Positions 1 through 16,441 of a stretch of 64,000 nt of DNA are shown here, in pieces (the stretch's first letter is position 1; every line of letters starts with the position of its first letter). The stretch lies in assembly GCA_964521085.1 (NCBI GenBank), contig CAZFPL010000008.1, forward strand, positions 946 through 64,945, in the 5' to 3' direction. The DNA is from an uncultured Anaerolineales bacterium (lineage in GTDB: Bacteria > Chloroflexota > Anaerolineae > Anaerolineales > RBG-16-64-43). The position numbers and the translations under genes are program-made. The notes beneath the pieces were generated by a model. That model saw only the letters and a list, made by a program, of their open reading frames with translations. It was not told where the DNA came from and made no database searches.

Positions 1-1495
1 AACGGATCATGAAGGTGCCGTCGCTCAACGCGTTTGCGGAGGTAAGATACGTCTTCCCTTCGCCGTATCCGCTGGGATCGGGATCGGCCAGGAAGAGCTC
101 AATCCGGCAACCCGGGCAAGCCGTGCCGGATGCATAGAGGCTGGCGGCGCCGGTGATCACGGGAGAGGCAATCCCCCGGTTGACGTAGTCCGAGAGGAAG
201 GATATTCCCAATCCGCCGTTGGAAAATATGCTGTTCTGCGTGATGGTGATCTTGGTTCCTTCGTCCGATGCGGGCCCGGAGAAGATGGAGATGCCGTCCC
301 CTCCGTTCCGGGTGATGACGTTGTTCTCGATGGAGAAGTTTTGAGCCTGGTCGATATTAATCCCGGCCGCGGTGTTGAAGGCGATCAGGTTCTGGACGCT
401 CGGAAGGGTGCCGCCTCCGATTATTGAACCTTCGCCGCGGCATGAAAAATCAATTCCGACGTTATTCGGAATCGGAAGCGAACCGGACGCGTCGGTCCCG
501 ATTTTATTTCCGCGGATGATAAGCATATCGCTGCAAGAGTAGATCCCCGTTCCGTTTCCTGAAATCAGGTTCCCTGAACCAGGCTCATCCCCCCCAATGG
601 CATTGTTATGGCTGCTGATCACGTGAATGCCCTGAAGCGAATTGGGCACTGCGGCGGTTCCTTCCGCATTGGTGCCGATATAATTATTCATTATGGAATT
701 GCTGTCGGCATTCATATGAATATAGATGCCCGTGTAGTGGCCCGAAATGACATTGCGGTTTTCCGGACCTTCTCCTCCGATGTGGTTTCCATCGGAAAAT
801 ATTTCGATGCCGATTACTTGATCGCCGAGCTTGGCTGTTCCGGCGAGATTAAGGCCGATCCAATTTCCAAGGATGGTTTGATGATCGCTATATATTTGTA
901 TCCCGACTTCGTTGCCCGAAATCAGATTTTCTCTGACCATGTTGTCCGAACCGGTCGAATAGAATCTGATGCCGGCTTGATTTCCGCGGGCGTTTCCTGT
1001 TGGTTCCACCCCGATATAGTTTCCCTCGATTCGATTTCGGTTGCCATCCACATAGATGCCGTCGACCGTCTCGGTTCCGACGATGCTCAACCCACGGATG
1101 ACGTTATCATCGGTAGCAAGGACCAATCCAGCGCCGCGTTCCAGCGCGCGGAAATCGAGAACGACGAGAGGAACTCCTCCGAAGTAAGGGGAGCGGGTGC
1201 CGTCCAAGGTGGTCCCATTATCGAGAAGAGGAGGTAACGGGGTCTCCAAGAATATGGTGTGAACGCCTCCTTCTCCGAAGAGAAAGATGATCTCGTCCGG
1301 CCCGGGATTGGCATTGGCCGCCTGGATCGCTTCACGGAGAGAACAATGCCGGGTGTCGCACAAGCCATCGTCGATGTCGACCGTTGTATTTACGACCAGT
1401 GTGGATGCGCGGGCATGGATGGGGGGAGAAAGCCACCATAGGAGCATCCCGATCCCCAAAAACGCGAACAATTTTTGGAAATGATTTTTTACCAT
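1..1495 (-). CDS. Secreted parallel beta-helix repeat protein with CSLREA-like N-terminal motif (3' end runs off the window)
   Basis: Absent from the ORF track because no stop lies inside the window. The reverse complement from ATG 1495-1493 reads MVKNHFQKLFAFLGIGMLLWWLSPPIHARASTLVVNTTVDIDDGLCDTRHCSLREAIQAANANPGPDEIIF, followed by NxIxGN-type repeats. Collinear paralog of 1540-4521. The + ORF 608-1237 is its antisense shadow. Confidence 0.8.
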   Translation of the reverse strand, partial: MVKNHFQKLFAFLGIGMLLWWLSPPIHARASTLVVNTTVDIDDGLCDTRHCSLREAIQAANANPGPDEIIFLFGEGGVHTIFLETPLPPLLDNGTTLDGTRSPYFGGVPLVVLDFRALERGAGLVLATDDNVIRGLSIVGTETVDGIYVDGNRNRIEGNYIGVEPTGNARGNQAGIRFYSTGSDNMVRENLISGNEVGIQIYSDHQTILGNWIGLNLAGTAKLGDQVIGIEIFSDGNHIGGEGPENRNVISGHYTGIYIHMNADSNSIMNNYIGTNAEGTAAVPNSLQGIHVISSHNNAIGGDEPGSGNLISGNGTGIYSCSDMLIIRGNKIGTDASGSLPIPNNVGIDFSCRGEGSIIGGGTLPSVQNLIAFNTAAGINIDQAQNFSIENNVITRNGGDGISIFSGPASDEGTKITITQNSIFSNGGLGISFLSDYVNRGIASPVITGAASLYASGTACPGCRIELFLADPDPSGYGEGKTYLTSANALSDGTFMIR

Positions 1496-1539
1496 GGCTT
1501 TCTCCCAACTGTTCCGCCGATGACGTTCAGGCCATGCCA

Positions 1540-4521
1540 TCACGGCGTACACGACCCTCCCGGCTGGGCGCCCTGCGGGCAGGGGGCGACACATTTGTCG
1601 GGTCCCTGGTTCTGCTTCACCCAGCAAGCGAACGGTTCCACTTCGACCACTGGTACTTGGTTTGTGTCTCCGGATGTTTCCACGTTTTCATCGGCAAGCC
1701 AGCACTGCGTCTGAGTGCCCGGTACCTGAACCTGCCACCAACTGCTGTTCTGATTTCGCCCGACGATGGGCACATTCGATCCGTTGGGGATGGTGGTCAC
1801 CGCGTCATATTCGGTTCCCGGACCGCGGCGGCAGATACCGTTCTGCCGCAGCGTGGCGGTCGGCGCGGAGAGAGTCGGGGTGACAGTCTGAGTGGCGGTT
1901 GCGGTTGCGTCTGGCGCGACCGTCTCCGTTGCGGCGGGTTGAACAGGATGCGGCGAGGCGATTTGGAACATGCGTTGGATTGTATCGGTGCAGAGGGGCG
2001 TCCAGAGCATAGATCCGTTCTGTGAACGTTCGCCCTTAAGGGTCCAGAAATAAACTCCGGTCTGTTTGGGATCAAATCCCACCTCGGAAAGGCTGATGGA
2101 ATTCGAGGTCAGTTCCTTGCTGATGATGTGGTTGCCGGGTCCGGTTACATCGAGGAACCAGCGCGTTTGCATTCCGGGCGGATCAGGTTGCGGCGACAGT
2201 TCAAAGAGCACGTCGGTGCCCGGGGAGAATATTGTTCCCTCCTCGGGGAAAAGTGTGGCCGCATCAATAAACTGCCCGCACGACGGCGAGGCCGGGGGAG
2301 CTTGCTCCCCCCTGTTCCAGTCGATTTGGACGACGGGCAGAGCAAGCAGACCGATGGCGATGATTGCGCCGAGAAGGCCGCCGGCGAGTCCCGGTACAAG
2401 CAGGGAGAAACCGGAAGGGGAACCCGGTCTGCGGGCAATAACGAGTACGAGGGAAAGTACGCTCCCGCCCGCCGCCCAGAGGATGATCCAGATCCAAACC
2501 AGAAGCGTAGGAGGCCGAATGCACACCCCCGCGGAAAACGACCTGGAAAACGTGGAGGTATTAAGATAAGCGCCGGTCGCCGTTGCCGTAAGCGTGTCGC
2601 ACCGATCGAGCGTCCGCCCGAGGTCGGCCCGGAAGACGCCGCTTGAAAAGGCGTCGATTGAGGTCAGGAAGGTTTGGCCTTCCCCGAAACCGCTGGGATC
2701 GCGGTCGGAAAGGAAGATCTCGATGTGGCAGCCCGGGCAGGAGGTTCCTTCCACGGTTGTGCCGGTTACGGCGGTGATGACCGGCGGCTCGATCCCGTCA
2801 TTGATTGCGGATGACTGAAATTGAATCCCCAACCCGCCGTTGTGGTATATGCTGTTTTCCATGAACAAATTGTGAACGGAGCTCCCGGATGACGTCGTCT
2901 CCAGAAAGATGCCGTCCATGCCGTTGGAGTGAACGGTGTTGTGCAAGATGCGCATGTTGCTGGAATCCTGCATATGGATGCCGTAGGATGTGTTAAAGGC
3001 AATCGGGTTGTTGTCATGAATCTGAAGTTCCCGCTGAATACCCACCACCCGGATCCCCACATTGTTGGGGATGCCCGCTGTGCCGGCCGCGTCGGTGCCG
3101 ATGCGGTTGTTTCGAATCGAATTACTCTCCGCTTCGATCCAGATTCCGATGCCGTTACCCGAGATCAGGTTGCCGGCTTCCGGACTCCCGATGTCGTTCA
3201 GAGGCGTCAGGATTTTTAATCCAATTTCGTTTGGAACGACGGTCGCACCGGATAGATCGGTGCCGAGGATGTTCCCAAAAATATCGGCCGATCCGGCTTC
3301 GTCCTCGAGCGAGATGCCGATCCCGTTGCCGGAGATGAGGTTCCCCTCGTCCCGGCCGTAGCCGCCGATTAACAGTTCACGGCCGTGCTCGCTGAAGATG
3401 CCGTATCCCTGTCTACCCAAAGCCCTGTTCCCGGCCGCGTTGGTCCCGATCCGGTTGCCCCGGATGATGGACCGGTCGGTATCGGCTCGGATCCCATATT
3501 CGTTGCCGGAGATGAGGTTGCCTTCGACGACCGCCCGCGGTGATTCCCGGCACATCCCGTCGGGATAAGCGTCACAGCGGTTCGCCGCCAGATTGATTCC
3601 GATGTAATTGGGGATTACGGCGTCTCCCGCGGCGTTGGTGCCGATGTAATTATTCTGAATAACGGCGCCAAAATCGGCATCGATCCCCTCTCCATAATTA
3701 CTGAAGCCCGAAATGACGTTCCGTTCCGCGGGCGACGAGCCGCCGATGATCAGACTGTTCACGGATCCGTAAGCGATGATGCCGAATCCCCTGGAATCTT
3801 CCGCGGCCCGGCTGCCCGTCGGGTCGGTCCCGATGAGATTTCCAAGAATCATGTGCCTAACACCCTCGCGGACCTGGATCCCAGTTCCATTGCCGGAAAT
3901 GACGTTGTCGATGACATATTGGCTTTCACCGTCAAGCCAGATGCCGTCGCTGTTGCCCTGGACGCTTCCATCCGGAGCCAGGCCGATGAAATTCTTTTCG
4001 ATGGTGTTGTTCGCGCCGTATACGTCGATCGCGCAGGCCGCATATCCTCCCGTAAAATTTATCAAACTCAATCCCCGTATGATGTTCCCATTGGAATTGA
4101 TGGCGATCGCTACGATCAACTCCGCCGGACCGCCGTCCAAGACGATGACGGGCGTTCCGCGGGCGTTCAATCCCGAGCCGTAAACCAGATTGTTGACATA
4201 TCCGGGCTGGGAATCCCCCGCAATCGTGGTGCCGCCGTCGCGGAGCGTGGGAAGCATCCCCGCCAGATGGATCGTATAGGGACCGGATCCGGGGATATTG
4301 AAATTGATGACGTCCGGTCCGTCGTGGGTGTTGGCCAGTTCGATGGCTGCCCGGAGCGTACAGTGAGCCGCCGTACAGCGGCTGTCGATGTAACTGTCGG
4401 AATCGTCAATGGAATTGACCGTGTAGGTGACGGCGCGGACGGGCGAGGGCGATGCCAACATGCCGGTCACAATCCCGAGAATAATGAAGGGCATTGCGAT
4501 TCGAAAGAGTCTGGTCTTCAT
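1540..4521 (-). CDS. Large surface protein: signal peptide, CSLREA-like motif, parallel beta-helix repeats, internal two-helix TM hairpin, FN3-like domain, C-terminal SH3b-like + Cys-rich module
   Basis: 1002-aa ORF. The likely start is MKTRLFRIAMPFIILGIV at 4521, with AAGGAGA upstream. Contains CTAAHCTLRAAIELAN, many NxISGN/IGTN repeats and the hydrophobic stretches LLVWIWIILWAAGGSVLSLVLVI and LLVPGLAGGLLGAIIAIGLLALPVV. The tail ends CWVKQNQGPDKCVAPCPQGAQPGGSCTP. Confidence 0.85.
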   Translation of the reverse strand: MKTRLFRIAMPFIILGIVTGMLASPSPVRAVTYTVNSIDDSDSYIDSRCTAAHCTLRAAIELANTHDGPDVINFNIPGSGPYTIHLAGMLPTLRDGGTTIAGDSQPGYVNNLVYGSGLNARGTPVIVLDGGPAELIVAIAINSNGNIIRGLSLINFTGGYAACAIDVYGANNTIEKNFIGLAPDGSVQGNSDGIWLDGESQYVIDNVISGNGTGIQVREGVRHMILGNLIGTDPTGSRAAEDSRGFGIIAYGSVNSLIIGGSSPAERNVISGFSNYGEGIDADFGAVIQNNYIGTNAAGDAVIPNYIGINLAANRCDAYPDGMCRESPRAVVEGNLISGNEYGIRADTDRSIIRGNRIGTNAAGNRALGRQGYGIFSEHGRELLIGGYGRDEGNLISGNGIGISLEDEAGSADIFGNILGTDLSGATVVPNEIGLKILTPLNDIGSPEAGNLISGNGIGIWIEAESNSIRNNRIGTDAAGTAGIPNNVGIRVVGIQRELQIHDNNPIAFNTSYGIHMQDSSNMRILHNTVHSNGMDGIFLETTSSGSSVHNLFMENSIYHNGGLGIQFQSSAINDGIEPPVITAVTGTTVEGTSCPGCHIEIFLSDRDPSGFGEGQTFLTSIDAFSSGVFRADLGRTLDRCDTLTATATGAYLNTSTFSRSFSAGVCIRPPTLLVWIWIILWAAGGSVLSLVLVIARRPGSPSGFSLLVPGLAGGLLGAIIAIGLLALPVVQIDWNRGEQAPPASPSCGQFIDAATLFPEEGTIFSPGTDVLFELSPQPDPPGMQTRWFLDVTGPGNHIISKELTSNSISLSEVGFDPKQTGVYFWTLKGERSQNGSMLWTPLCTDTIQRMFQIASPHPVQPAATETVAPDATATATQTVTPTLSAPTATLRQNGICRRGPGTEYDAVTTIPNGSNVPIVGRNQNSSWWQVQVPGTQTQCWLADENVETSGDTNQVPVVEVEPFACWVKQNQGPDKCVAPCPQGAQPGGSCTP

Positions 4522-4592
4522 CGTCCCGTCTCCTTGGCACTTGCCCAAAGCGCGTTTGCTTGTCCGCTTCGGACTGTAATTGCTGAGACCAC

Positions 4593-4656
4593 GGATTACA
4601 CGGATGGAACTCTTTGGGCTTATTCCTTTGCTGAATTGGGTCTATCCGTGTAATCC
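4593..4656. repeat. Intergenic inverted repeat GGATTACACGGAT / ATCCGTGTAATCC (13 bp perfect, 38-nt spacer) within a cluster of CACGGAT/ATCCGTG motifs
   Basis: Read directly from the sequence. The repeat lies between the stop of gene 4685-6286 and the start of gene 1540-4521. Additional ATCCGTG copies occur at 4666-4682. Confidence 0.8.
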
Positions 4657-4684
4657 ATATCTCTTTATCCGTGTCATCCGTGAT

Positions 4685-6286
4685 TTACGGTTCGCATGCG
4701 CCTCCCGGCTGGGCGCCTTGCGGGCAGGGGGCCACACACTTATCGGGTCCTTGCTGTTGTTTCACCCAGCAGCCGAGTGGTTCGGCTTCGACGATCGGCA
4801 CTTTACTAGTATCGCCGGACGTCTCTACATTTTCTCCTGCCACCCAGCATTGGGTCTGGCCTCCCGGGACTTGCACCTGCCACCAGGTGCGGTCTGGGTT
4901 TCGTCCGACAATTGGCACGGTCGATCCCTTCGGCAGATTAGTCACAACGTCGTATCCAGTGTCCGGTCCGCGACGGCAGTTGGCGTTCTGCAGGAGGGTG
5001 GCGGTGGGCACTGTCGGGGTGACATCGGGCGGCGGCACGGTAACCAAAGGACCGAGGTCGGTTGGACAGATTCCGCCGGTCTGGTTGACGATGAAAGAAT
5101 AGGCATCCGAGTAAGGTCCGTCTGCGTCTCCGGGCAGTTCTGCCTTTACCCTCCAATAGAACCGTTCGCACTCGCGCTCTCCCGTCTCCCCGGGCAGTCG
5201 GAGGTTTACACTTTCCTGAAATTGTGAGTAATTAATTTCACGGGTGAGGACAACAAGGGTGTCATCGGCCGAAAAATCCGGATTGCGGGAAACCTCCAGT
5301 TTATATCCCCCGGGCGCCAGACAGGGTGTGGGATCGTTCCACCCCAGGCCAACCGCGATCCTGCCGTCGGTTTCCATCCATATTCTGGCCACTTCTCCGT
5401 CTGCGGGGAACAATGGGATCGGGGCAAGAAAGGAGGTCGGGTCACTGGTACTGACCGAACAGATCGGGCCGATGAAGTACCCCGCCGTCTCCGACGTCTC
5501 CGGGGGGGCATACTCGCTGAAGGCTTTCACGCGCCATTCATAGAATGTTCCAGGCGTGAGCGCATCCGGAGGAGTCCAGGATCTCAGCGAACCGTCGATA
5601 TTTTCTTCGAAAAGTATCCGGGAAGTCGACTCGGATGTTAAAAGCTGTATTTGGAAGTGATCGGGCTTGCAGCGACCCGGATAATCCCATACATGAGTGG
5701 GTGCAAGGTTGCTCACCACCTCGTATTCTCCGGGCCAGAACGGGATGGGAGCCACCAGGTCGTCTTCCAATCCGCAGGTTAGAAGGGTCGCGCAGTATAT
5801 GACCGGCCGGCCGAGCAGATAACCGTCCGGGTAGGCAGAAGTGTTTTCGCTATTGTCGGTCGCAAAGACTTGAAATTCTATATTTCCGTTTTGCGTGCCG
5901 AGTTCAGTGCCGGCTTCGCTGCCCACGTTGATCAGGAAGCCAAACTGGCTGCCCATGCCCTCAAAGGTGCCGGAAACGGTATGCCAGTCGCCGACATAAC
6001 CTTCCTCGCCCTGGTAGCGATACCGGACGTGGGTTTCCGAAATACGGGATGGATCCGGGTCCATGCCGGTATCCGATGGATCGAGAATCCTCGCGCCGAT
6101 GTGCAATTGATTCTCGCCGCAGCCTGCGGGATAAAATACCACATCTTCGAGCGCCACGACGCCGTTTATTTCCGGCGGCGTGGTGTCCGTCGGCGTTGGG
6201 ATGCAAGCACCAAGCAGGATGCTCAACAATGAGAATACCGCAAGGAGCTGTGAAAACCGGTTGGATAGTTCAGGTTTTGATTTCAT
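4685..6286 (-). CDS. Lipoprotein with two FN3-like (YxWRVK) modules and C-terminal SH3b-like + Cys-rich module
   Basis: Lipobox SILLGAC, with GGAGG 6 nt upstream of the ATG at 6286. Contains the motifs FYEWRVKAF and CERFYWRVKAEL. The C-terminal 105 aa are shared with 3 neighbouring genes. Confidence 0.85.
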   Translation of the reverse strand: MKSKPELSNRFSQLLAVFSLLSILLGACIPTPTDTTPPEINGVVALEDVVFYPAGCGENQLHIGARILDPSDTGMDPDPSRISETHVRYRYQGEEGYVGDWHTVSGTFEGMGSQFGFLINVGSEAGTELGTQNGNIEFQVFATDNSENTSAYPDGYLLGRPVIYCATLLTCGLEDDLVAPIPFWPGEYEVVSNLAPTHVWDYPGRCKPDHFQIQLLTSESTSRILFEENIDGSLRSWTPPDALTPGTFYEWRVKAFSEYAPPETSETAGYFIGPICSVSTSDPTSFLAPIPLFPADGEVARIWMETDGRIAVGLGWNDPTPCLAPGGYKLEVSRNPDFSADDTLVVLTREINYSQFQESVNLRLPGETGERECERFYWRVKAELPGDADGPYSDAYSFIVNQTGGICPTDLGPLVTVPPPDVTPTVPTATLLQNANCRRGPDTGYDVVTNLPKGSTVPIVGRNPDRTWWQVQVPGGQTQCWVAGENVETSGDTSKVPIVEAEPLGCWVKQQQGPDKCVAPCPQGAQPGGACEP

Positions 6287-6393
6287 CTTGCCTCCATGTA
6301 TCCATCGACCGCACTCAAAACTCGGACGATAGATCGGGTTGTACGTTCATCTCGTCTCCTGCATATCGCCATCTAGAAAGCGGCCCAAGGAAT

Positions 6394-7602
6394 TCACGGT
6401 TCGCACGCTCCTCCCGGCTGGGCGCCTTCCGGGCAGGGGGCTACGCACTTATCGGGCCCCTGCTGCTGCTTCACCCAACAACCGAGCGGCTCTGCTTCAA
6501 CGATCGGTACCTTGCTCAGGTCGCCGGACGTCTCGACATTTTCTCCTGCCACCCAGCATTGGGTCTGGCCTCCCGGAACCTGCACCTGCCACCAGGTTTT
6601 CTCTGGATTGCGTCCGACGATTGGCACGATCAATCCCTTTGGCAGATTGGTTACGACGCTGTAATCGGTGCCCGCCCCGCGGCGGCAATTGGCGTTCTGC
6701 AGCAGCGTGGCGGTCGGCGGAGAAGCGGTCGGGGTGATGCCGGGAGTCGCGGTGGCCGTCGGTTCCAGGTGGGGAGACGGGCCGGGAATCGGAGGCCACA
6801 GGCATTCGCGTCGGATGTCGGTCCACATGTATCGCGGAGCCGACCACGGCCCGTCGTCGTCCGTCCCGGGCAGGTTCACCCGGACTCTCCAGTAGTAGAC
6901 GGCGCATTCCTCATACGGAAATAAGTCATCAGAGGTCATGCCGATAAAAGCCATGTTTGTGATTCCGGATATATTCTTCGTGTATACCGTTGTATCGAAA
7001 GCAGGAGAGGTGGAGAATTGAACCGTGTATCCGCCTGCCGGAGTGCAAGGGCTGGGATCTTCCCATTCAACGGCAAAAAAGCCGCTGGTAAGGTGATACG
7101 CGTCGGGAGGGTTGAGCAGGATGGGCGGGAGAAGTCCGCCGGAGCCCTCGCATTGCGGGCCGGTATCGAATTGAAATTGATTGAACGTGGCCGGACCTTC
7201 GGTCCGTCCGGCTATGGGAACAATCACATAATAATAATGCGACGCCGGTTGAAGCGGCTGATCGGCCGGCACGGTGAAGCTCGTCACGTTGGACCAGCCT
7301 ATAACTTCGATATCGAACTCGATATACCAGCGGGTGAAGATCCGGATTTCGTAATTCTCCGGACGGCAGTCCGGATCCGGGTAGGTCCAATGCAGCGTGG
7401 GCGTGAGGGTATCGATGATTATGTTGCGCGGGTCCGCATCCTCGATCGCCACCAGCTCCTCGGCGGTGCATATTCTGGAAGGCGTGGCGATCGGCGACGG
7501 AGTCGATTCGGGCCTGCAGCCGACGGCCAACAGCATGACCAACGCTGCACAAGGCCATCGCCGTAAAGTAGTCGAAAGGAATCCCGTCGAATCATTCTTC
7601 AT
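6394..7602 (-). CDS. Lipoprotein paralog (FN3-like x2 + shared C-terminal module)
   Basis: The ORF extends to 7680, but AGGAGG precedes the ATG at 7602 (MKNDSTGF...), and a LLAVGC lipobox follows. Contains CAVYYWRVRVNLPGTDDDGPW. The C-terminal module is nearly identical to that of 4685-6286. Confidence 0.85.
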   Translation of the reverse strand: MKNDSTGFLSTTLRRWPCAALVMLLAVGCRPESTPSPIATPSRICTAEELVAIEDADPRNIIIDTLTPTLHWTYPDPDCRPENYEIRIFTRWYIEFDIEVIGWSNVTSFTVPADQPLQPASHYYYVIVPIAGRTEGPATFNQFQFDTGPQCEGSGGLLPPILLNPPDAYHLTSGFFAVEWEDPSPCTPAGGYTVQFSTSPAFDTTVYTKNISGITNMAFIGMTSDDLFPYEECAVYYWRVRVNLPGTDDDGPWSAPRYMWTDIRRECLWPPIPGPSPHLEPTATATPGITPTASPPTATLLQNANCRRGAGTDYSVVTNLPKGLIVPIVGRNPEKTWWQVQVPGGQTQCWVAGENVETSGDLSKVPIVEAEPLGCWVKQQQGPDKCVAPCPEGAQPGGACEP

Positions 7603-7730
7603 GGATCCTCCTTTGGACACATTCCAAATTGTTCTCCATTCCGGGCGATAACAGACGCCCGGATTTGCTTGCAGGCCCAACCCGGCTTTGGAAACCCTCC
7701 GCCGGGCCGCGGGTGATACGGATTTAATAT

Positions 7731-7786
7731 GGATTGCACGGATAGATCCGGGATAATTATTGAATTGGGATCTATCCGTGCAATCC
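7731..7786. repeat. Intergenic inverted repeat GGATTGCACGGATAGATCC / GGATCTATCCGTGCAATCC (19 bp perfect, 18-nt spacer)
   Basis: Read directly from the sequence. Same relative position as 4593-4656, between the stop of 7792-9450 and the start of 6394-7602. It differs from the first copy by paired (compensatory) substitutions. Confidence 0.85.
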
Positions 7787-7791
7787 GTGGT

Positions 7792-9450
7792 TTACGGTTC
7801 GCATGCGCCGCCCGGTTGTGCTCCCTGCGGGCACGGGGCCACGCACTTATCGGGACCCTGCTGCTGTTTCACCCAGCAGCCTAGCGGCTCGGCTTCGACG
7901 ATCGGCACTTTACTGGTATCACCGGACGTCTCCACGTTTTCCTTGGCGAGCCAGCAATGGTTCAGGCTGTTCGGTATCCGCACCCACCACCAGGAGTTAT
8001 CCGCATTCCGGCCGTCGATCGGCACCTCCAGACCCTGGAACAGGGTTGTCAGCGACCGGTACTCGATGCTTGGTCCGCTGCGGCAGTAGGCGTTGTGCAG
8101 GAGTTTGGCGGTGGGGGTTCCGGAACCCGGGGAGGGCAGGAATTGGAAGTCCCATCCGAAGTTGTTCTCGCGGCGGATATCCGCGTCACCAAGTGTAATT
8201 TCATACTCCCCCGTTTCGCAGCCGCGCACCGGAAAGGTGAAGCTGCCGGGGATGAGGACCGAGATGTTCGCTTCGGAAAGGGGATTGATCGAGACGCAAT
8301 ATGCGCCGGCGGCAAGTGGGCCGAACATATAATGCCCGCCCGAATCGGTCGTGGTCGTAGCCAGGCCCGTGGAGGGGCAGGGGCCTGCGCCAAGGTCGAC
8401 GGTCACGCCTTCCAGACCGGGTTCTCCTCCTTCGAAGATGCCATTGGCTTCAAATCCGCCTCCGGGCACGGCGATGCAACCCGGGGGAACGATATCGGTG
8501 CTTGCATAAGGAACGGCACATAGGTCGTGCCACACGTGGCCGTCGATCCAGCTGGACGGTTCGCTGGAGGTGCCCCCGCCTGGACCTCCGCCGGGGATCG
8601 GGAAATCGAACGGCGGGATGGGGGTGATATGGGTCACCGGGAGGGTCGTGCATGCGCTGGTCCGGATGGTGAACGACCAGGTTTCCGACCAGGGGCCGTC
8701 TTCCGAGTCAACCCGGTCGCGCAGGTCGATTTTCACTCTCCAATAGTAACGAGTGCAGTCCGAAAGCTCGGATGTCGTCCAAGGCGGTTGGACTCCCAGA
8801 TAAGGGAGGACGCTGCTGACCTCAATCGGATCGGTGAAGGTCGGCGTCTCGGATATTTGCACCTTGTAATCGCCGGGAGGGATGCAGGTGGTCGGATCGT
8901 CCCATTCAAACAAGGGAGTCCGGATATCCCAAACGGATCCGTCCGGCGGGTAAAGCAAAACCGGAGCCGACATTGTCCCCGGACTGATCACCACGCACTC
9001 TGGTCCGGTGCGAAAGATACCCCAATCGACATCAGGGGTCTCGTCTCCAACACCGGCTTGGATCGACCAAATATACATCGTTCCGGTATCCAATGGATCG
9101 GGAGGGATCCATGATCTCAGGGATCCGGGAATTCGAACATCTGCAACGGCGGGGGGCATGTATGTCGCAGGCCAATTGGTATACAGGCGCAGCTGAAAAT
9201 ACTCGGGGTCGCAGGATGAATCGGAAAAAGACCACTCGAGGGTCGGTGACAATGAATCGATAAGGACGCCCCAATCCGCCTCCGGCCCTCCCGGTGTCAG
9301 GGTTTCGGCTATTCCAAGATGGTCCGGCGAACAGGCCGGCAATCCTCCTTTTGAGACCGGACGGCACGCACCCAGGAACACGACCATCCCTGCGAGCGCC
9401 ACTGTGCGGAACCTGCCGAGAAAAGTCCGAGGTCGAATCCTGTTGATCAT
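7792..9450 (-). CDS. Lipoprotein paralog with extra Cna-B/SdrD-B-like domain and shared C-terminal module
   Basis: The ORF extends to 9498, but AGGAGGAAAA precedes the ATG at 9450 (MINRIRPR...), and a FLGAC lipobox follows. Contains CTRYYWRVKIDL and GVTVDLGAG...TTTDSGGHYMFGPLAAGAYCV. The tail CWVKQQQGPDKCVAPCPQGAQPGGACEP is identical to that of gene 4685-6286; gene 6394-7602 differs by one residue (PCPEGAQ). Confidence 0.85.
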   Translation of the reverse strand: MINRIRPRTFLGRFRTVALAGMVVFLGACRPVSKGGLPACSPDHLGIAETLTPGGPEADWGVLIDSLSPTLEWSFSDSSCDPEYFQLRLYTNWPATYMPPAVADVRIPGSLRSWIPPDPLDTGTMYIWSIQAGVGDETPDVDWGIFRTGPECVVISPGTMSAPVLLYPPDGSVWDIRTPLFEWDDPTTCIPPGDYKVQISETPTFTDPIEVSSVLPYLGVQPPWTTSELSDCTRYYWRVKIDLRDRVDSEDGPWSETWSFTIRTSACTTLPVTHITPIPPFDFPIPGGGPGGGTSSEPSSWIDGHVWHDLCAVPYASTDIVPPGCIAVPGGGFEANGIFEGGEPGLEGVTVDLGAGPCPSTGLATTTTDSGGHYMFGPLAAGAYCVSINPLSEANISVLIPGSFTFPVRGCETGEYEITLGDADIRRENNFGWDFQFLPSPGSGTPTAKLLHNAYCRSGPSIEYRSLTTLFQGLEVPIDGRNADNSWWWVRIPNSLNHCWLAKENVETSGDTSKVPIVEAEPLGCWVKQQQGPDKCVAPCPQGAQPGGACEP

Positions 9451-9952
9451 TTTTCCTCCTATGATTCCTGCCTTGTTCACGGAATGACCGCTTTTCATAC
9501 CGGCGCGGAGTCGGCAGGCGGAACTCCGCTAGCCGGGATAATATGAAATGAATAATGGGATAAGAATTATCGTATTAGTAGAAAGGAAAGTAACTAGATT
9601 GAGAATAGCATAATAAAGACAAGTCGGCTTACATAAAACCTACACAAAACCTCTTAGTGCCGCCGAACTAAAACCAGCCTGGGTTATGGGCGTTGCAGCC
9701 GATTTTTCAGCCGATCCTCCGGCTTTCATTCCATGGCAGGAAAGATCGAAATCGATCTATTATGAAGAGAAAGCGCAGGATGAAGCCGGTCACCCATTGT
9801 TTTGGCTGGTCCGCCAGAAACCGGTGTCAGACCCGGCGATAAGGAACGAGGGAGTTGGGTTCTTATCACCTATACTTGCGCGGATTTCTTTGGTAACCTA
9901 CCCATTGCAGGATGGGGGCCTGCCCAAAGCGCAAGCGACACAGGAGGCATGG

Positions 9953-11248
9953 ATGAAAATCGCAGTCATCGGCGGCGGATCCACCTATTCACCCGAGCTG
10001 GTCAACGGTCTCCTCGAGCGCACGGTGGTCCTGCCCGTGCGCGAACTTTGGTTGGTGGATATCGATGCAGAACGGCTGGAGATCGTGGGTGGATTCATAC
10101 GGCGGATGGTCGCCGCCGCCGGCAGCCCGTTTTCGGTCGAACTGACGGACGATTACAAGCAGGCCGTCGCGGGCGCTTCCTATGTGGTGACCCAGCTGCG
10201 CGTCGGCAAGATGCCCGCCCGCCGGGAGGACGAATACCTCGGCAAGCGCCACGGCCTGATCGGCCAGGAAACAACCGGCGTCGGAGGGATGACCAAAGCC
10301 CTGCGGACGATCCCTGTGATCCGCGGGATCGCCGCGGAGATGCGGCGAGTCGCACCCGGAGCGGTGCTTGCCAATTTCACAAATCCGGCCGGCCTGGTTA
10401 CGCAGGCGCTGACCGACGTGCTGCCGCACGGACAGGGGATCGGGGTATGCAACGTACCCATCACCACCCGGATGAGCATCATCAAGCGTTTGGAAAAGAT
10501 GACCGGAGCCAAAATCGATCCTGCGCGGACCCAGCTCAATACGCTGGGATTGAACCATCTCTCCTGGCATCGGGGATTCACGCTGGACGGAGAGGACCTG
10601 TGGGGGCAGATCCTCGCGGAAACGGTAAAAGAACTGAGAGCGCAACCGGACCCGGAATGGGATCCGGATTGGATCGAGAAGAACCGCCTGCTTCCGAACT
10701 ATTATCTGCAATACTACTACCACACCGAAAAGAAACTCGCCGCCCAGGAGAAGTGGCCGCCTTCGCGCGCCGAGGAGGTGATGGAGGTTGAAAAGCGGCT
10801 GCTGGCGGAATACGCCGAACCGGACCGCACTGCGCCGCCCGAGGATTTGAAAAAACGGGGCGGAGCATACTATTCCACCGCGGCGACACAACTGATCGCC
10901 GCCCACTACGCGGGGAAAGGGGAAGTCCACGTCGTCAACATTGCCCACAACGGCGCAGTAGAAGGCTGGCCGAAGGATTGGGTGCTCGAGATGCCGGTCA
11001 ACGTGACGCGCGGATCCGTGCAGCCGATCCCCGCGCCGCCGCTGCCAAAAATGTGCTACGACCTGATCGCGCGGGTCAAGGAATACGAACTGCTTACCGT
11101 CCAGGCGGCGATCCATGGAGATCGCAAGGCGGCCCGGGGAGCGCTACTCGCCCATCCGCTGGGTCCGGGTCCGGATCGGGTGGACGCGGTGCTTGACGAT
11201 ATGCTGGAGACGAACCGGCACCATCTGCCGTTGTTCTGGGAAAAATAG
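9953..11248 (+). CDS. chbF: GH4 6-phospho-beta-glucosidase (ChbF/CelF-like, NAD/Mn-dependent)
   Basis: MKIAVIGGGSTYSPELVNGL..., VVTQLRVGKMPARREDE, GQETTGVGG, RTIPV, NFTNPAG and GVCNVPI match E. coli ChbF closely. AGGAGG lies 6 nt upstream of the ATG at 9953. The track ORF start at 9686 is an unsupported N-terminal extension. Confidence 0.9.
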   Translation: MKIAVIGGGSTYSPELVNGLLERTVVLPVRELWLVDIDAERLEIVGGFIRRMVAAAGSPFSVELTDDYKQAVAGASYVVTQLRVGKMPARREDEYLGKRHGLIGQETTGVGGMTKALRTIPVIRGIAAEMRRVAPGAVLANFTNPAGLVTQALTDVLPHGQGIGVCNVPITTRMSIIKRLEKMTGAKIDPARTQLNTLGLNHLSWHRGFTLDGEDLWGQILAETVKELRAQPDPEWDPDWIEKNRLLPNYYLQYYYHTEKKLAAQEKWPPSRAEEVMEVEKRLLAEYAEPDRTAPPEDLKKRGGAYYSTAATQLIAAHYAGKGEVHVVNIAHNGAVEGWPKDWVLEMPVNVTRGSVQPIPAPPLPKMCYDLIARVKEYELLTVQAAIHGDRKAARGALLAHPLGPGPDRVDAVLDDMLETNRHHLPLFWEK

Positions 11249-11296
11249 AAGCACAGAATCCGGGATTTCGAAAATTTTAAACCGCTTCCGAAGGGA

Positions 11297-12295
11297 TTGG
11301 ATTTTCCAGTAATGACATCACAAAAAATCCTCCTGGGCGTCGATATCGGCGCCACCAAAACAAGGGCGCTCCTGGCCGACGAGAACGGCGCGGTTCTCGG
11401 TTTCGGCCTGGCCGGTCCCGGAAACCATGAAACGGTGGGATATCCCGGCCTGACGGCGTCTGTGCGATTTGCGCTTGAGATGGCCTGCGCGCAGGCCGGG
11501 GCGGCCGAGGCGGATATCCTGGCAGCCGGATTCGGGATTGGCGGGCTGGATTGGGATTCTCAGGAAGCCGACACCCGCCGGGCGATCGGGGAAACCGGTC
11601 TGCGGTGTCCAATGCGGCTGGTGAACGACACCATTCTGGGATTGGTCGCCGGCGCTCCGGAAGGCTGGGGAGTGGCGGTGGTTTCCGGGACGGGCTGCAA
11701 TTGCTGGGGATGGACCAAGGACCGCACCCGCATCGGGCGGGTGACCGGCGGCGGGATACAAATGGGGGAGGGAGCGGGCGCAACGGAACTGATCGCCGAG
11801 GCGGTCAAGGCGGTTGCCCGGTCTTGGACCAAACGGGGGCCTGCCACCGTGCTGGCGGATGCGTTTGTGGCGTGTGCCGGCGCGCGGGATCTTACCGACC
11901 TGCTGGATGGAATGATGGAAAACCGCTACGAAATGAACGCCTGCTCCGCGCCGCTGATCTTCCAAGCGGCCGCGAAGGGCGACCCGGTCGCCGCCGGACT
12001 GGTGGAGTGGGCCGGAACGGAATTGGGGGAAATGGTGAATGCGGTCGTCCGTCAATTGGATTTCCAGGAATTGGAATTCGATGTAGTGATGATCGGAAGC
12101 ATGTTCGACGGCGGACCGGCCCTGGTGGACGCGATGCGCCGAAAAGTGGCTGCACTGGCGCCGCATGCACGCTACATCCGCCTGGCCTGCCCGCCGGTGG
12201 TGGGAGCCGCAATCCTGGCGATGGAACGGGCCGGCATCCCGGTCTCGGCAAAGGCAAAAGAGCGGCTTGCCCGGGAAACGATCGCGCATATGTAA
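11297..12295 (+). CDS. BadF/BadG/BcrA/BcrD-type ATPase (N-acetylglucosamine kinase-like)
   Basis: KILLGVDIGATKTRALLADENGAVLGFGLAGPGNHE is the typical N-terminal phosphate-1 motif of this sugar-kinase family. The start may instead be the ATG at 11312. Confidence 0.75.
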   Translation: MDFPVMTSQKILLGVDIGATKTRALLADENGAVLGFGLAGPGNHETVGYPGLTASVRFALEMACAQAGAAEADILAAGFGIGGLDWDSQEADTRRAIGETGLRCPMRLVNDTILGLVAGAPEGWGVAVVSGTGCNCWGWTKDRTRIGRVTGGGIQMGEGAGATELIAEAVKAVARSWTKRGPATVLADAFVACAGARDLTDLLDGMMENRYEMNACSAPLIFQAAAKGDPVAAGLVEWAGTELGEMVNAVVRQLDFQELEFDVVMIGSMFDGGPALVDAMRRKVAALAPHARYIRLACPPVVGAAILAMERAGIPVSAKAKERLARETIAHM

Positions 12296-12345
12296 CCGGT
12301 CCGCAGCGGGCCATTCTTCATCTCTATAAAAGGAAAAACGACCTT

Positions 12346-13383
12346 ATGGAATCGGTGCTTTGGAAAGAAATCCACGAACAACCGGAAGTCATCCGGAAAC
12401 TGATCACGGAAGAACATACTCAAATTCTCCGATTGGGGCGCGAGCTTCGGGAAAAGTCGTGCCGCTTTGTGTACCTCGCAGCTCGGGGGACTTCCGACAA
12501 TGCCGCCCGCTACGGACAATACCTCTTCGGCGGGATCAACCGGCTGCCGGTGGCGCTTACGGCTCCTTCCCTCTTCACCACCTATCGGACTCCTCCGCGA
12601 CTTGGGGATGCGCTGGTCATCGGCATTTCGCAATCCGGGCAGTCGCCGGATATTGTTGAGGTGCTGGAGGAGGCGCGCCGGCAGGGGGCGCCGACTATTG
12701 CGATCACCAACGACGGCAATTCGCCGCTGGCTCTGGCGGCCGAGCACGTCCTCCTCCTCGCGGTCGGCCGCGAGCAAAGCGTTGCGGCCACCAAGACGTA
12801 CACCTCGCAACTCGCCGTGCTGGCGATGCTTTCGCTGGCGATGGAGGATCAATTAAAGGAGGAAACGCTTGCGCCGGTCGTGTCCTGGATGGAATCCGCT
12901 TTGCAGGCGGAGCCACAGGCGCAGGCCGCCGCCGAACGAATTGCGGATTCCAACCGCGCAGTCGTTTTGGGCCGCGGTTATCACTTGTGCACCGCGCACG
13001 AAATCGCGCTGAAAATCAAGGAGCTTTCCGGCGTGGAAGCCGAACCGTATTCCACCGCGGATTTCAAACACGGACCGATCGCGATGGCGGAAGGCGGTCT
13101 GCCCGTGATCCTCGTTTCGGTGGGCGCCACTTTCCGGCAGGAAATGGTCGAGTTGGCGGATCTTGTCCGGTCGCAGGGCGCGCGCGTCCTTCCCGTCGCC
13201 GACGAACTTCCCGGCCTCCAGCCTGCGGATTCCTGGATTCCCCTTCCGCCCGGGGAACCCGAATGGCTGACGCCCATCGCGGCGATCATTCCCGGACAGC
13301 TTTTAGCCATCCATCTTACGCGGGCGCGCGGATTGGACCCGGACCGGCCGCGGCATATCCGCAAAGTAACCCTTACGCATTGA
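12346..13383 (+). CDS. SIS-domain sugar-phosphate isomerase/deaminase (GlmS C-terminal/AgaS-like)
   Basis: MESVLWKEIHEQPEVI..., FVYLAARGTSDNAA, VIGISQSGQSPD, ITND, ATKTYTSQ and the tandem SIS pattern support the call. The track ORF 11551-13383 begins inside the previous gene in another frame, so the start was taken at ATG 12346. Confidence 0.75.
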   Translation: MESVLWKEIHEQPEVIRKLITEEHTQILRLGRELREKSCRFVYLAARGTSDNAARYGQYLFGGINRLPVALTAPSLFTTYRTPPRLGDALVIGISQSGQSPDIVEVLEEARRQGAPTIAITNDGNSPLALAAEHVLLLAVGREQSVAATKTYTSQLAVLAMLSLAMEDQLKEETLAPVVSWMESALQAEPQAQAAAERIADSNRAVVLGRGYHLCTAHEIALKIKELSGVEAEPYSTADFKHGPIAMAEGGLPVILVSVGATFRQEMVELADLVRSQGARVLPVADELPGLQPADSWIPLPPGEPEWLTPIAAIIPGQLLAIHLTRARGLDPDRPRHIRKVTLTH

Positions 13384-13523
13384 ATGGAGGAGAAAATTTT
13401 TTATCGTAAACAGAAACCGGTGAAAAAAGCCGTCATGCTAAGCGAATCATCTATGCACACGTTGTAGATCCTTCGCTACGCTCAAGGTGGCATATCCAGA
13501 AGTGTGATCTATAGAACAATCTT

Positions 13524-13580
13524 CACCACAAAGACACCAAGACAAAAAGGAAAAATCTTTGTGTCTTTGTGCCTTGGTGG
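13524..13580. repeat. Copy 1 of a dispersed inverted-repeat element, core CCACAAAGACACC
   Basis: CACCACAAAGACACCAAGAC ... CTTTGTGTCTTTGTGCCTTGGTGG. CACAAAGACAC pairs with GTGTCTTTGTG, and CACCAAG pairs with CTTGGTG. The same core recurs at 58587-58650. Confidence 0.7.
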
Positions 13581-13611
13581 TAAATGAGATTGTTTCAGAC
13601 CAGGGCTGAAA

Positions 13612-14457
13612 ATGGAAAAAACGAAGTACCTGATTGTCAACGCGGATGATTATGGCCGCACCCCGGGTGTCTCCCAAGGCATCCGTGAAGCGCATTTGCA
13701 TGGGATTGTCACCTCGACCTCGGCACTCATGAATATGCCTTGGATCGAAGAGGATTTGCGGATCGCGATGCGGGAAACTCCGGATCTGGGATTGGGCGTG
13801 CATCTGGTGCTCACTTGCGGAACGCCGTTGCGATCGCCCGATTTGGTGGAAACCATAACCGGCGGACATGAGAGTTTTCCGAAATTGCAGGATTTGGTGC
13901 AAAAATTAACGGGTGTGGATCCGGAACAGGCAGCCGCCGAATGGGATACGCAAATTCAGCGGTTCATCGAGCTCACGGGACGGAATCCGGATCACCTGGA
14001 TTCGCATCATCATGTGACCTTTTTTACCGAGGAGTTGTTTTCGAAGTTCCTGGATCTGGCGCGGCGATACAGTTGCGCGATTCGGATCCCGTTTCCAACC
14101 CAGTCGGGCTATTGCGACGGCCTGCCGCAGCAGTTTTCCGACGCGGTGATGGAATTTGTTCCGCGGTTGACACAGCAGGATGCGCCGTCCAAGCCGGATT
14201 GGTTTATCGGCACTTTCTATGATGAACTAGCCACGTCCGAACAGCTTTTCCGGATCCTGGACCAAATGGAAACCGGTGTCTCCGAGATGATGTGCCATCC
14301 CGGGTATGCGGACGAGGCGCTCCTGAATGGCTCGGCCTACAGCAAGCCGCGAGAACGCGAGGTGCGGATCCTGACCATGGATTCGGTCCGGCAGACTTTT
14401 GTGGAACGCGGGATACGGCGGATTAATTTTTCTGCACTTACACAATTGCCCAAATAG
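13612..14457 (+). CDS. chbG: ChbG/YdjC-family carbohydrate (chitooligosaccharide) deacetylase
   Basis: YLIVNADDYGRTPGVSQGIREAHLHGIVTSTSALMN and LDSHHHV are hallmark YdjC motifs. Confidence 0.85.
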   Translation: MEKTKYLIVNADDYGRTPGVSQGIREAHLHGIVTSTSALMNMPWIEEDLRIAMRETPDLGLGVHLVLTCGTPLRSPDLVETITGGHESFPKLQDLVQKLTGVDPEQAAAEWDTQIQRFIELTGRNPDHLDSHHHVTFFTEELFSKFLDLARRYSCAIRIPFPTQSGYCDGLPQQFSDAVMEFVPRLTQQDAPSKPDWFIGTFYDELATSEQLFRILDQMETGVSEMMCHPGYADEALLNGSAYSKPREREVRILTMDSVRQTFVERGIRRINFSALTQLPK

Positions 14458-15844: not shown

Positions 15845-16441
15845 CTATTTCTCCTGAGACCGCGGCCAGTCCCTGTGCAACCGGTCGAGTGTCCGCCGGA
15901 TAGTCACGGACACGGTATTATCGGGAATGCCGAGATGATCCGCTATTTGATGGACATGCCAACCAAGCATATAGCGCAAGACAAGCATCTCTCGTGGACC
16001 GTCGGGAAGCGATTGCAGCATCCGGAGCAATTCGGATTGCTCCTCCCCGGACGATACAATCTCTTCCGGACCGGGATCCTGATTGGCAAGTTCCGCAGGT
16101 GGATTTTCTTCCCTTGCGGGATGCGTTTTTCGCCGGCGGTACCGGTCGATCACCAGCCGGCGGGCGATCGTGAGCAGCCAACCGGTTGCGGCTCGCTCAT
16201 CCCCGTGGAAAATGCGACGTGTTTTCCAGGCGCGTGAAAAGGTCTCAGCGGTCAGATCTTCCACTTCGGCGGCCGGACCGCCGGTCAATCCGTAGAGGTA
16301 TCGAAAAACCGACAAGTGAGCGTGTTCAAACAAAATGCTGAATCCGGACGACGTGGAAAATTGAGCATCGGTGATTTCGGGTTTCGATGAATGGAAGAGG
16401 TTTCGGAATCGATCTGCCAAAACGGCTCCTTTGACAGGCAA
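15845..16441 (-). CDS. ECF-type RNA polymerase sigma-70 factor
   Basis: Region 2 reads LTAETFSRAWKTRRIF...WLLTIARRLVIDRYRRRK. Region 4 reads LQSLPDGPREMLVLRYMLGWHVHQIADHLGIPDNTVSVTIRRTLDRL. Confidence 0.9.
   Translation of the reverse strand: MPVKGAVLADRFRNLFHSSKPEITDAQFSTSSGFSILFEHAHLSVFRYLYGLTGGPAAEVEDLTAETFSRAWKTRRIFHGDERAATGWLLTIARRLVIDRYRRRKTHPAREENPPAELANQDPGPEEIVSSGEEQSELLRMLQSLPDGPREMLVLRYMLGWHVHQIADHLGIPDNTVSVTIRRTLDRLHRDWPRSQEK

Follow-up and report, generated by a model that had tools for sequence, protein, structure and literature searches.

Bacterial SH3b domains (PF08239), represented by those of lysostaphin/ALE-1, the phage phiSM101 endolysin (4krt) and C. perfringens CPF_0587 (2krs), are wall-targeting domains usually found on wall hydrolases. 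SH3-like cell-wall-binding domains were also described in fungal muramidases (8b2f, 8b2g, 8b2h), where they are located N-terminally on GH24 and GH184 enzymes and contain the disulfides Cys9-Cys53 and Cys33-Cys72; among them, the T. saccata domain was crystallised with triglycine and is able to bind cells of M. lysodeikticus (PMC10394673). A constant extreme C-terminus on unrelated, often clustered surface proteins is known from the sorting signals of the LPXTG/sortase, PEP-CTERM/exosortase, GlyGly-CTERM/rhombosortase and PGF-CTERM/archaeosortase systems and from the C-terminal domain of the T9SS. In the RsgI/SigI system of Clostridium thermocellum, surface proteins share their binding module with anti-sigma factors, in which it serves as the sensor. 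The module described here combines a known part, a predicted SH3b wall-binding fold, with a new part, a 28-residue end-piece containing four cysteines.

The window, i.e., the whole stretch of 64,000 nucleotides that was analysed, begins with an array of five genes at 1-9498, all co-oriented on the minus strand as the first-pass annotation had stated (Table 1). Its two beta-helix proteins were recovered, since g1 and g2 both passed the models PF13229/PF05048, and its CSLREA assignment held for g1 (TIGR04214, 46.8 bits against a cut-off of 25 bits) and failed for g2, in which the variant CTLRAA scored 19.1 bits. The three proposed lipoproteins agree with the lipoboxes of g3 (LLGAC28), g4 (LAVGC55) and g5 (FLGAC45), which are PROSITE-type pattern matches only, and the proposed Cna-B-like domain was identified in g5 as SdrD_B (PF17210, 38.4 bits over residues 350-406, cut-off 29.7). 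The label FN3-like stood less well: these modules scored 13-15 bits with Pfam fn3 (E 0.025-0.11, threshold 25 bits) and the threshold of Ig_Rha78A_N was reached in g5 only, so that they are best called, from their profile scores, beta-sandwich modules of uncertain family.

Table 1. Array genes, C-terminal modules and neighbouring cluster, with positions in the window
Feature	Position	Strand	Description
g1	1..1495	-	Partial; signal peptide, CSLREA N-terminal motif, NosD-type parallel beta-helix; C-terminus past window start
g2	1540..4548	-	Beta-helix protein, 1002 aa as ORF, likely start 4521 (993 aa); signal peptide, beta-helix, TM hairpin, ~130-aa juxtamembrane domain, Pro/Thr linker, module
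g2 transmembrane hairpin	2317..2535	-	Hydropathy scan; two hydrophobic helices, residues ~672-744, with RRPGSPSG between
g2 module	1543..1860	-	SH3b part ~1690-1860; linker and Cys4 tail 1543-1689; SH3_3 25.4 bits
g3	4685..6286	-	Lipoprotein, 533 aa, lipobox Cys28; YxWRVK beta-sandwich modules, Pro/Thr linker, module
g3 module	4688..5005	-	Cys4 tail with linker 4688-4834; SH3_3 36.4 bits; copy used for modelling
g4	6394..7680	-	Lipoprotein, 428 aa as ORF, probable start near 7602, lipobox Cys55; two FN3/Ig-like modules, linker, C-terminal module
g4 module	6397..6714	-	Alignment; tail 6397-6543; SH3_3 31.9 bits
g5	7792..9498	-	Lipoprotein, 568 aa as ORF, probable start near 9450, lipobox Cys45; two FN3/Ig-like modules, SdrD_B (Cna-B-like) domain 8281-8451, module
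g5 module	7795..8112	-	Second SH3 subtype (WWWVRIPNS..HCW); tail 7795-7941; SH3_3 19.8 bits
Context cluster	9686..14457	+	Pfam; GH4, BadF-type sugar kinase, SIS, YdjC; divergent from array

Comparison with homologs refined several of these genes. For g2 the later start is likely, as the 100% identity with P0011 begins at residue M10. The transmembrane hairpin of g2, placed between the beta-helix and the module, had been missed in the first reading; similar hairpins occur in P0014, P0019, P0024, P0032 and the L001/L002 proteins. Orthologues of g4 and g5 are P0012 (77% identical) and P0013 (61% identical), respectively. The truncated g1 shares 87% identity with P0014 (859 aa) over 498 aa, and because this orthologue continues into the hairpin, the SH3 domain and the Cys tail, g1 almost certainly bears the module as well.

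The module occupies 106 aa at the C-terminus of all four complete genes (g2-g5), with copies 73-91% identical to that of g3, taken as reference, and with six invariant cysteines, which bears out the shared C-terminal block reported for every complete gene. At the DNA level it appears as a 300-nt direct repeat in four copies of 72-84% identity, and no copy beyond the array was found by tblastn in the 64 kb window. Two SH3 subtypes are present, and recombination, in the form of a cassette swap of the SH3 segment, is visible between paralogues. The tail of g5 is identical to that of g3 at 49 of 49 residues, yet half of the synonymous sites differ.

The first ~62 aa of the module are, by profile and structural model, a bacterial SH3b fold, as had been suggested for the first ~60 aa. 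The gathering score of Pfam SH3_3 (PF08239, 27 bits) was exceeded in g3 and g4; g2 and g5 scored below it and align over their full length to the other copies at 73-75% identity. SH3_3 matches at E<=1e-3 were obtained for 14 of 35 family members. The AF2 model of the g3 module had a mean pLDDT of 88.8 and 91.9 in two runs, with 92-97 over the SH3 part and 93-97 over residues 1-70, and its top Foldseek matches were the SH3b structures 2krs (rmsd 1.6 Å over 66 residues), 8b2g (2.3 Å) and 9ovi (2.1 Å); the SH3b domains of wall hydrolases matched in this way were 2krs, 4krt, 6biq, 9a7d and 8b2g. Like described SH3b domains, the module is C-terminal, behind a flexible linker and on secreted proteins, but it differs from them in a conserved Cys pair. 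The best PDB sequence matches to the module were the fungal muramidase domains 8b2g/8b2f (E 0.008-0.07), a weak sequence similarity of 31% identity in which the Cys pair aligns with the positions of Cys9-Cys53, whereas the second fungal disulfide has no counterpart, no Cys being present at the positions of Cys33-Cys72. The cysteines of the module may form disulfides, and homology predicts that the SH3b part binds a wall polymer.

The tail comprises the last ~28 aa of the module and reads G-C-W-V...C-x-x-P-C-P-x-x-A-x-P-G-G-x-C-x-P-stop, with the Cys spacing C-x9-17-C-x3-C-x9-C. No match to it was found in Pfam, NCBIfam or PDB even at E<=10, in line with the earlier statement that it is no named sorting signal; by these searches, it is a previously undescribed four-Cys element that belongs to no characterised family. 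An obligatory C-terminal mini-domain of this kind occurs in no described SH3b domain, and the fungal SH3-like domains also lack it. The tail has a dN/dS of 0-0.10 at a dS of 0.8 to above 2 between paralogues, i.e., near saturation, and purifying selection acts on it more strongly than on the SH3 part. In 38 diverse sequences, little or no variation is seen at any of the cysteines, at the W/V that follows the third Cys (C3) or in PCP..A.PGG. The tail is therefore judged to be functional, because a low dN/dS at high dS coincides with near-invariant residues across these sequences. It also appears to be autonomous, since the linker between SH3 and tail varies in length by 0-12 residues and P0031 and L033 carry the tail without SH3. 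According to AF2, with a pLDDT of 82-90 for most of the tail and 74 for the last six residues, it is predicted to be folded as a compact mini-domain of three short beta-strands.

An exhaustive and unbiased profile search over 1.84 billion proteins returned only about 38 clusters, with the exact C-x-P ending in 36 of the 38 true matches. The named genomes that contain the module are all Anaerolineales MAGs, and the module is restricted to a small, Anaerolineales-centred family. Within this family, unrelated architectures, including anti-sigma factors, carry the module in different genomes at identities down to 38-50% with all Cys kept. The pattern noted in the array, varied N-terminal parts followed by a constant C-terminal module, holds in relatives as well. 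The tail is kept under purifying selection in those other genomes and, as it matches no family, the module as a whole is not covered by a characterised one. The source habitats are anoxic, one of the MAGs being from Zodletone spring, and extracellular disulfides may be disfavoured in such habitats.

Among carriers with a length of 200 aa or more, 58 unique proteins were counted. The membrane anchors of carriers are a lipobox (31 of 58, by pattern match), a transmembrane hairpin or an ECF sigma/anti-sigma fusion; CSLREA beta-helix proteins with TM segments account for 11 of the 58. Fusions of an ECF sigma factor with a zf-HC2 anti-sigma factor make up at least six of the 58 (seven distinct ones when shorter and duplicate entries are included), and in these the linker and the module are the only extracytoplasmic part. 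This arrangement recalls RsgI/SigI, from which it differs in that sigma and anti-sigma form one polypeptide with a zf-HC2 domain and in that the module is SH3b plus a Cys tail instead of a CBM. Peptidoglycan hydrolases, the usual context of SH3b, were absent from the carriers found, which are instead membrane-anchored beta-helix proteins, Ig/FN3-type lipoproteins and anti-sigma factors; a catalytic wall- or chitin-degrading domain was likewise found on no carrier.

The array lies between an amino-sugar cluster and the his operon, and its gene number varies from 2 to 5 among relatives. The former, the GH4/BadF/SIS/YdjC cluster, looks like a putative pathway of amino-sugar or chitobiose catabolism, and its synteny with the array extends from the window to L001, L080 and L081. 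The check for a dedicated processing enzyme proposed in the first-pass annotation was run on gene neighbourhoods: no conserved non-family gene was found in the flanks of 77 loci, and no partner enzyme was conserved in the longer Pfam-annotated contexts L080, L082, L084 and L085.

Our tentative reading, which we hold at a little below an even chance, is that the block is a putative two-part extracytoplasmic binding/sensor module, probably for a wall polymer, and no sorting signal. Its first part is an SH3b domain in which one Cys pair probably acts as a staple, and its second would be an autonomous four-Cys mini-domain of ~28 residues, confined to the extreme C-terminus and with C-x-P as its end. 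Carriers are exported via Sec or lipoprotein signals and held at the cytoplasmic membrane by lipid, TM hairpin or anti-sigma TM helix, while the Pro/Thr-rich linker would keep the module at a distance from the membrane. We infer that the ligand is a wall polymer and that it belongs to the cell itself, most likely as a polymer of its own envelope; peptidoglycan stem peptides or cross-bridges are the best guess for the SH3b part, and one common partner for the tail. Binding would tether the distal end of the carrier proteins to the wall, and in the ECF sigma/anti-sigma fusions the module would report the state of the ligand to transcription.

The dedicated surface-display or anchoring system proposed in the first-pass annotation, in which a machine for sorting, secretion or anchoring would recognise the tail or the whole module as a tag and either cleave it or attach the protein covalently to the envelope, is now considered very unlikely. 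The strictly C-terminal position, with its nearly universal C-x-P end, the combination with many unrelated ectodomains, the tandem arrays, and the analogy to secretion domains that are C-terminal and folded but have no TM helix would all suit such a tag. However, the tail contains neither a hydrophobic segment nor a basic C-terminal cluster and ends in ...PGGxCxP, all NCBIfam sorting-signal models remained without a match even at E<=10, the 77 loci and the four longer contexts showed no conserved neighbour enzyme, and the carriers have a membrane anchor of their own, either at the opposite end or midway along the protein. Moreover, anti-sigma factors must remain in the membrane, and a sorting role fits poorly with fusions in which the module is the whole extracytoplasmic part, whereas binding or sensing fits them. 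Among the known systems, a sortase, exosortase, rhombosortase or archaeosortase signal was rejected on the missing hydrophobic stretch and CTERM match (E<=10), and a T9SS C-terminal domain on the lack of a Pfam/NCBIfam CTD match and on the SH3 fold, which is not the CTD beta-sandwich. A functionless lineage-specific duplication, in which the common end is merely left over from tandem duplication or gene conversion in the recent past, is scarcely credible: tandem genes, an array size that differs between relatives and visible swapping of the SH3 segment would be expected from it, but it is contradicted by synonymous divergence near saturation between copies whose protein is kept and by the occurrence on unrelated architectures, including anti-sigma factors, at 38-50% identity with all Cys retained.

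A rather doubtful alternative, although the least improbable of those considered, is that the module is directed at a target outside the cell: as the binding head of membrane-tethered stalks (FN3/Ig, Cna-B, beta-helix), it would catch foreign wall debris or polymers of amino sugars, either to feed or to adhere, and the sigma/anti-sigma fusions would sense that same substrate. This resembles the situation in Clostridium thermocellum, where enzymes and RsgI-type anti-sigma factors bear carbohydrate-binding modules, and it would account for the use of one module both by surface proteins and, as the only sensor, by the fusions, for N-terminal parts that are mostly non-catalytic beta-sandwich stalks, and for beta-helix parts of the carbohydrate-binding/sugar-hydrolase type (PF13229/PF05048). 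The divergently adjoining GH4/BadF/SIS/YdjC cluster points the same way, but the synteny may be mere conservation of gene order around an array of varying size, and the carriers have no catalytic domain for wall or chitin degradation. Two SH3 subtypes with cassette swaps between paralogues would fit a diversification of specificity, while the extreme conservation of the tail across those paralogues suggests one invariant partner and not diverse targets. Binding of foreign bacterial cells by the T. saccata member of the fungal SH3-like group is also consistent with an external target (PMC10394673).

The tail could also be a cross-linking end-piece (through hinge-like intermolecular disulfides) or a Cys4 metal-binding one, joining the array proteins to each other or to a surface-layer or sheath protein, which we regard as improbable. 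Four invariant Cys within 28 residues, including C-x-x-P-C-P, at a free C-terminus, and a tail that is more conserved than SH3 and near-identical among co-encoded paralogues, as a shared partner would lead one to expect, speak for it, and anoxic habitats favour free thiols or metal ligation. Against it, the Cys spacing is unlike that of zinc ribbons or knuckles, a metal site received no support from PDB or family matches, AF2 folds the tail of a single chain into a compact mini-domain, and the Cys pair of SH3 corresponds to a disulfide known to form within one domain, so that the proteins appear to be built for an oxidising compartment. With a similarly low probability, the four-Cys tail would be a new envelope-attachment determinant of monoderm Chloroflexota, i.e., a docking or covalent (thiol-based) tag whose dedicated receptor or enzyme is encoded elsewhere in the genome; if true, this would be a new mode of fixing proteins to the cell surface, with its state wired to ECF sigma factors.

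Two further observations, on the N-terminal parts and on the ligand, weigh against the reading favoured here. Many of the "payloads" consist only of Ig/FN3/Cna-B-type stalk modules, which would suit a stalk whose binding head is directed outward just as well as a payload with a wall anchor. The synteny with the amino-sugar catabolic cluster hints at an external glycan or wall debris as the ligand.

Anaerolineae are abundant filamentous fermenters of sediments and digesters, and to our knowledge almost nothing is known about the organization of their cell surface. All four complete genes of the surface-protein array (g2 to g5) are terminated by the same block, as the first-pass annotation had described; it comprises 106 aa, is 73-91% identical to the g3 copy and contains six invariant cysteine residues. 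At the DNA level this module is a 300-nt direct repeat present in four copies, and no further module was found in the 64-kb window beyond the array. A two-helix membrane hairpin, not visible in the first reading, is placed between the beta-helix and the module of g2. The g1 ortholog P0014 (87% identical) has the hairpin, the SH3 domain and the tail, so the partial g1, the fifth array gene, very probably carries the module too. A promoter/terminator scan gave no signal above shuffled sequences, and an Rfam search of the window returned no matches.

Coordinates of the array, its surroundings and related loci
Locus	Position	Strand	Feature
Window	1-1495	minus	g1, partial; signal peptide, CSLREA/NosD-type parallel beta-helix protein
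Window	1540-4548	minus	g2; second beta-helix protein
Window	4685-6286	minus	g3; lipobox, beta-sandwich modules
Window	6394-7680	minus	g4; lipobox, beta-sandwich modules
Window	7792-9498	minus	g5; lipobox, beta-sandwich modules, SdrD_B (Cna-B-like) domain
Window	9686-14457		GH4, BadF-type kinase, SIS, YdjC cluster
Window	14533-15843	minus	436-aa protein
Window	15845-16441	minus	ECF sigma factor
Window	17006-18382		458-aa ORF
Window	19476-23078	plus	1200-aa hybrid protein
Window	23465-25387		ABC permease genes
Window	27210-28598 (+), 42272-45073 and 54067-55353 (-)		second GH4, three predicted lipoprotein esterases, lipoprotein alpha-galactosidase
L001	2572-7252		GH4/BadF/SIS/YdjC cluster
L080	1428-6001		GH4/BadF/SIS/YdjC cluster
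L079	2894-4603	minus	569-aa polytopic membrane protein
L078	198-1799		g3 ortholog
L002	3848-4111	minus	degraded or truncated module copy
L001	7720-7881	plus	degraded or truncated module copy
L005	8762-10345		beta-helix protein ending in Cys-stapled SH3 subtype
L004	8180-10495		beta-helix protein ending in Cys-stapled SH3 subtype
L006	1411-3375		beta-helix protein ending in Cys-stapled SH3 subtype
L084	4809-6284		sigma/anti-sigma fusion P0034/P0048
L044	2710-4326		sigma/anti-sigma fusion
L055	7232-8830		sigma/anti-sigma fusion
L056	5227-8040		sigma/anti-sigma fusion
L060	3977-5593		sigma/anti-sigma fusion

The first part of the module (residues ~1-62) is an SH3b domain and belongs to an already known kind. 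The bacterial SH3 fold suspected from the sequence was supported by the Pfam SH3_3 model (above threshold in g3 and g4, just below it in g2 and g5), by an AlphaFold model built from 35 family sequences (mean pLDDT 91.9; 93-97 in the SH3 part) and by Foldseek comparison with the PDB, in which good alignment was obtained for the SH3 part only. The structures retrieved were SH3b domains of wall hydrolases (2krs, rmsd 1.6 Å; 4krt, 6biq, 9a7d) and, from a fungal muramidase, an SH3-like domain that binds cell walls (8b2g; 31% identity, 2.3 Å), and such fungal domains were also the best PDB sequence matches of the module. Their Cys9 and Cys53 align with C1 and C2, the first two module cysteines. These two residues form a disulfide in the fungal structures, and the T. 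saccata domain of that group binds bacterial cells and was crystallized with triglycine (PMC10394673).

The second part is a tail of ~28 residues that runs to the stop codon and has the pattern G-C-[WYF]-V-x(7-15)-C-x-x-P-C-P-x-x-A-x-P-G-G-x-C-x-P. It is joined to the SH3b domain by the linker VPIVEAEP in the window and by Pro/Thr-rich linkers up to 12 residues longer in relatives, lacks a hydrophobic segment, and is predicted to form three short strands (pLDDT 82-90 over most of its length, 74 for the last six residues). Tail-only searches of Pfam, NCBIfam and PDB were empty even at E<=10, which agrees with the earlier remark that the tail resembles no named sorting signal; an actinodefensin match was rejected as noise (14 bits vs a cut-off of 65). 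Literature searches on CSLREA and on Anaerolineae SH3 surface proteins yielded no description of the module. This obligatory C-terminal four-Cys mini-domain is undescribed in the three databases and the searched literature, and likewise its pairing with a disulfide-type SH3b domain on lipoproteins, TM-hairpin beta-helix proteins and sigma/anti-sigma fusions. In the database protein P0031 and at the related locus L033, the tail is directly preceded by a linker or by an SdrD_B domain, without SH3, and is thus an autonomous unit; the module defines a small domain without any database entry.

Synonymous sites are near saturation when the four paralogs are compared (dS 0.8 to above 2), and the tail has hardly diverged (dN/dS 0-0.10); the tails of g3 and g5 are identical at 49/49 residues and differ at half of the synonymous sites. 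The shared end is therefore kept by protein-level selection rather than by recent duplication or conversion. The SH3 part is under weaker constraint than the tail (dN/dS 0.10-0.56). Recombination also occurs: in a near-identical strain (L078), the g3 ortholog matches g3 at 99% of nucleotides over 1275 nt, identity then falls to 65% in the 177-nt SH3 segment, which is closer to the g5 subtype (78%), and in the tail it is back at 93%. A cassette has here been swapped between paralogous modules. Two degraded or truncated copies were observed in a related MAG (L002, L001), one with an in-frame stop and loss of the third cysteine, the other consisting of the last third of SH3 and the tail only, which suggest gene turnover in these arrays.

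The module family is rare: among 5.8 billion clusters, word-indexed searching recovered only nine short fragments (7 and 5 matches per search), and a word-indexed protein search with an SH3-only alignment gave zero matches. When 1.84 billion representatives were searched exhaustively with HMMER and a profile of the tail alone, 41 matches were obtained at E<=1e-3, of which 38 were real; P0017, P0033 and P0040 were discarded as compositional matches to numerous short 'DPCPNGANPG'-type or translated-repeat stretches in giant or spurious proteins. C-x-P is the exact protein end in 36 of the 38, an unbiased figure, and in 70 of 72 tails overall, a figure biased because the degenerate DNA pattern required C-x-P and a stop. 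That pattern found 71 metagenome loci, mostly genuine. Overall, ~38 clusters were found at the 50% identity level, and 72 tail sequences were distinct. At least two co-oriented module genes occur at 13 loci. When one genome per GTDB species was scanned, the full module was present only in two Anaerolineales MAGs (L001-L003), and the same Cys-stapled SH3 subtype without the four-Cys tail occurred in other Chloroflexota (L004-L006). There it ends beta-helix proteins and is followed by a different four-Cys tail (DCPSIASDAKCNATDGCTYDYVGKKCVAQ) in L005 and by an FN3-like domain in L004 and L006.

Module proteins are named hypothetical, CSLREA domain-containing or ECF sigma factor in the source databases. 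The analysis covered 58 unique carriers with a minimum length of 200 aa. Of these, 31 contain a lipobox and 11 belong to the CSLREA-type beta-helix proteins with TM segments; six or more are single-polypeptide fusions of an ECF sigma factor and an anti-sigma factor, and most of the remainder are fragments. Seven distinct fusions were counted (P0034/P0048, P0038, P0047, L044, L055, L056, L060), with P0034 and P0048 taken as one and with P0038 and L060, which are shorter or duplicate entries, included. They consist of ECF sigma-70 regions 2 and 4 joined to a zf-HC2 anti-sigma domain, followed by a single TM helix, then a Pro/Thr linker and finally the module; the module with its linker is the sole extracytoplasmic part. 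In Anaerolineae, the module is the mark of a coherent group of surface proteins anchored in the membrane and of sigma/anti-sigma sensors. The gene after the L084 fusion encodes a related lipoprotein with SdrD_B domains and without the module.

All-against-all ORF clustering of 77 loci revealed no conserved neighbor besides family members; recurrent ORF clusters were rejected as partners, being antisense ORFs of the family genes. Nothing resembling a processing enzyme recurred in the Pfam-annotated longer contexts. The window shares synteny with L001, L080 and L081, in all of which the array adjoins a divergently transcribed GH4/BadF/SIS/YdjC cluster with a predicted role in amino-sugar or chitobiose-like catabolism. 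The array has two genes in L080/L081 vs five in the window. It is flanked on the other side by hisG in L080, and hisG comes after the g1 ortholog in L079; the array of the window lineage probably lies likewise between the sugar cluster and hisG. Between the g1 ortholog and hisG, L079 encodes a polytopic membrane protein without Pfam match that looks like a large integral-membrane transferase.

A dedicated surface-display or anchoring system, as proposed in the first-pass annotation, was not supported: the tail has no hydrophobic segment, no cognate enzyme was found near it in the 77 loci and the longer contexts, and the carriers are already membrane-anchored. A true sorting or processing tag is improbable and, on present evidence, the module is no new sorting pathway. 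Membrane anchors in the middle of the carriers or at their other end, the Pro/Thr spacer, the SH3b domain of a wall-binding type and the presence of the module as the sole external part of anti-sigma factors, together with these absences, point towards a binding or sensing module rather than a sorting signal. Tentatively, we prefer the reading that the ligand of the module is a polymer in the envelope of the cell itself. Such binding would tether the distal end of the carrier proteins, and in the sigma/anti-sigma fusions the module would report the state of the envelope. That the tail is strictly terminal and very highly conserved points to a single important partner, which, once found, would be a handle on envelope architecture and sensing in this uncultured lineage.

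The main alternative, that the module is a displayed head capturing external wall debris or amino-sugar polymers, would be favored by the mostly stalk-like N-terminal parts, the amino-sugar cluster adjoining the array and the fungal muramidase parallel, and is considered possible, if rather unlikely. The four cysteines might instead make the tail a thiol- or metal-based cross-linking piece, for which we see a small chance, somewhat above that of the processing tag. A functionless duplication is already contradicted by the data and hardly credible.

Several other genes of the window were noted. The ECF sigma factor gene beyond the sugar cluster is followed by that of a 436-aa protein without Pfam match and without the module, which may be its anti-sigma partner; the 458-aa ORF also has no Pfam match. 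The 1200-aa hybrid combines a LacI-type periplasmic binding domain, HisKA, HATPase, a receiver and an AraC-type HTH in a single polypeptide and is located upstream of ABC permease genes. The window is rich in exported carbohydrate-active lipoproteins, none of them module-bearing.
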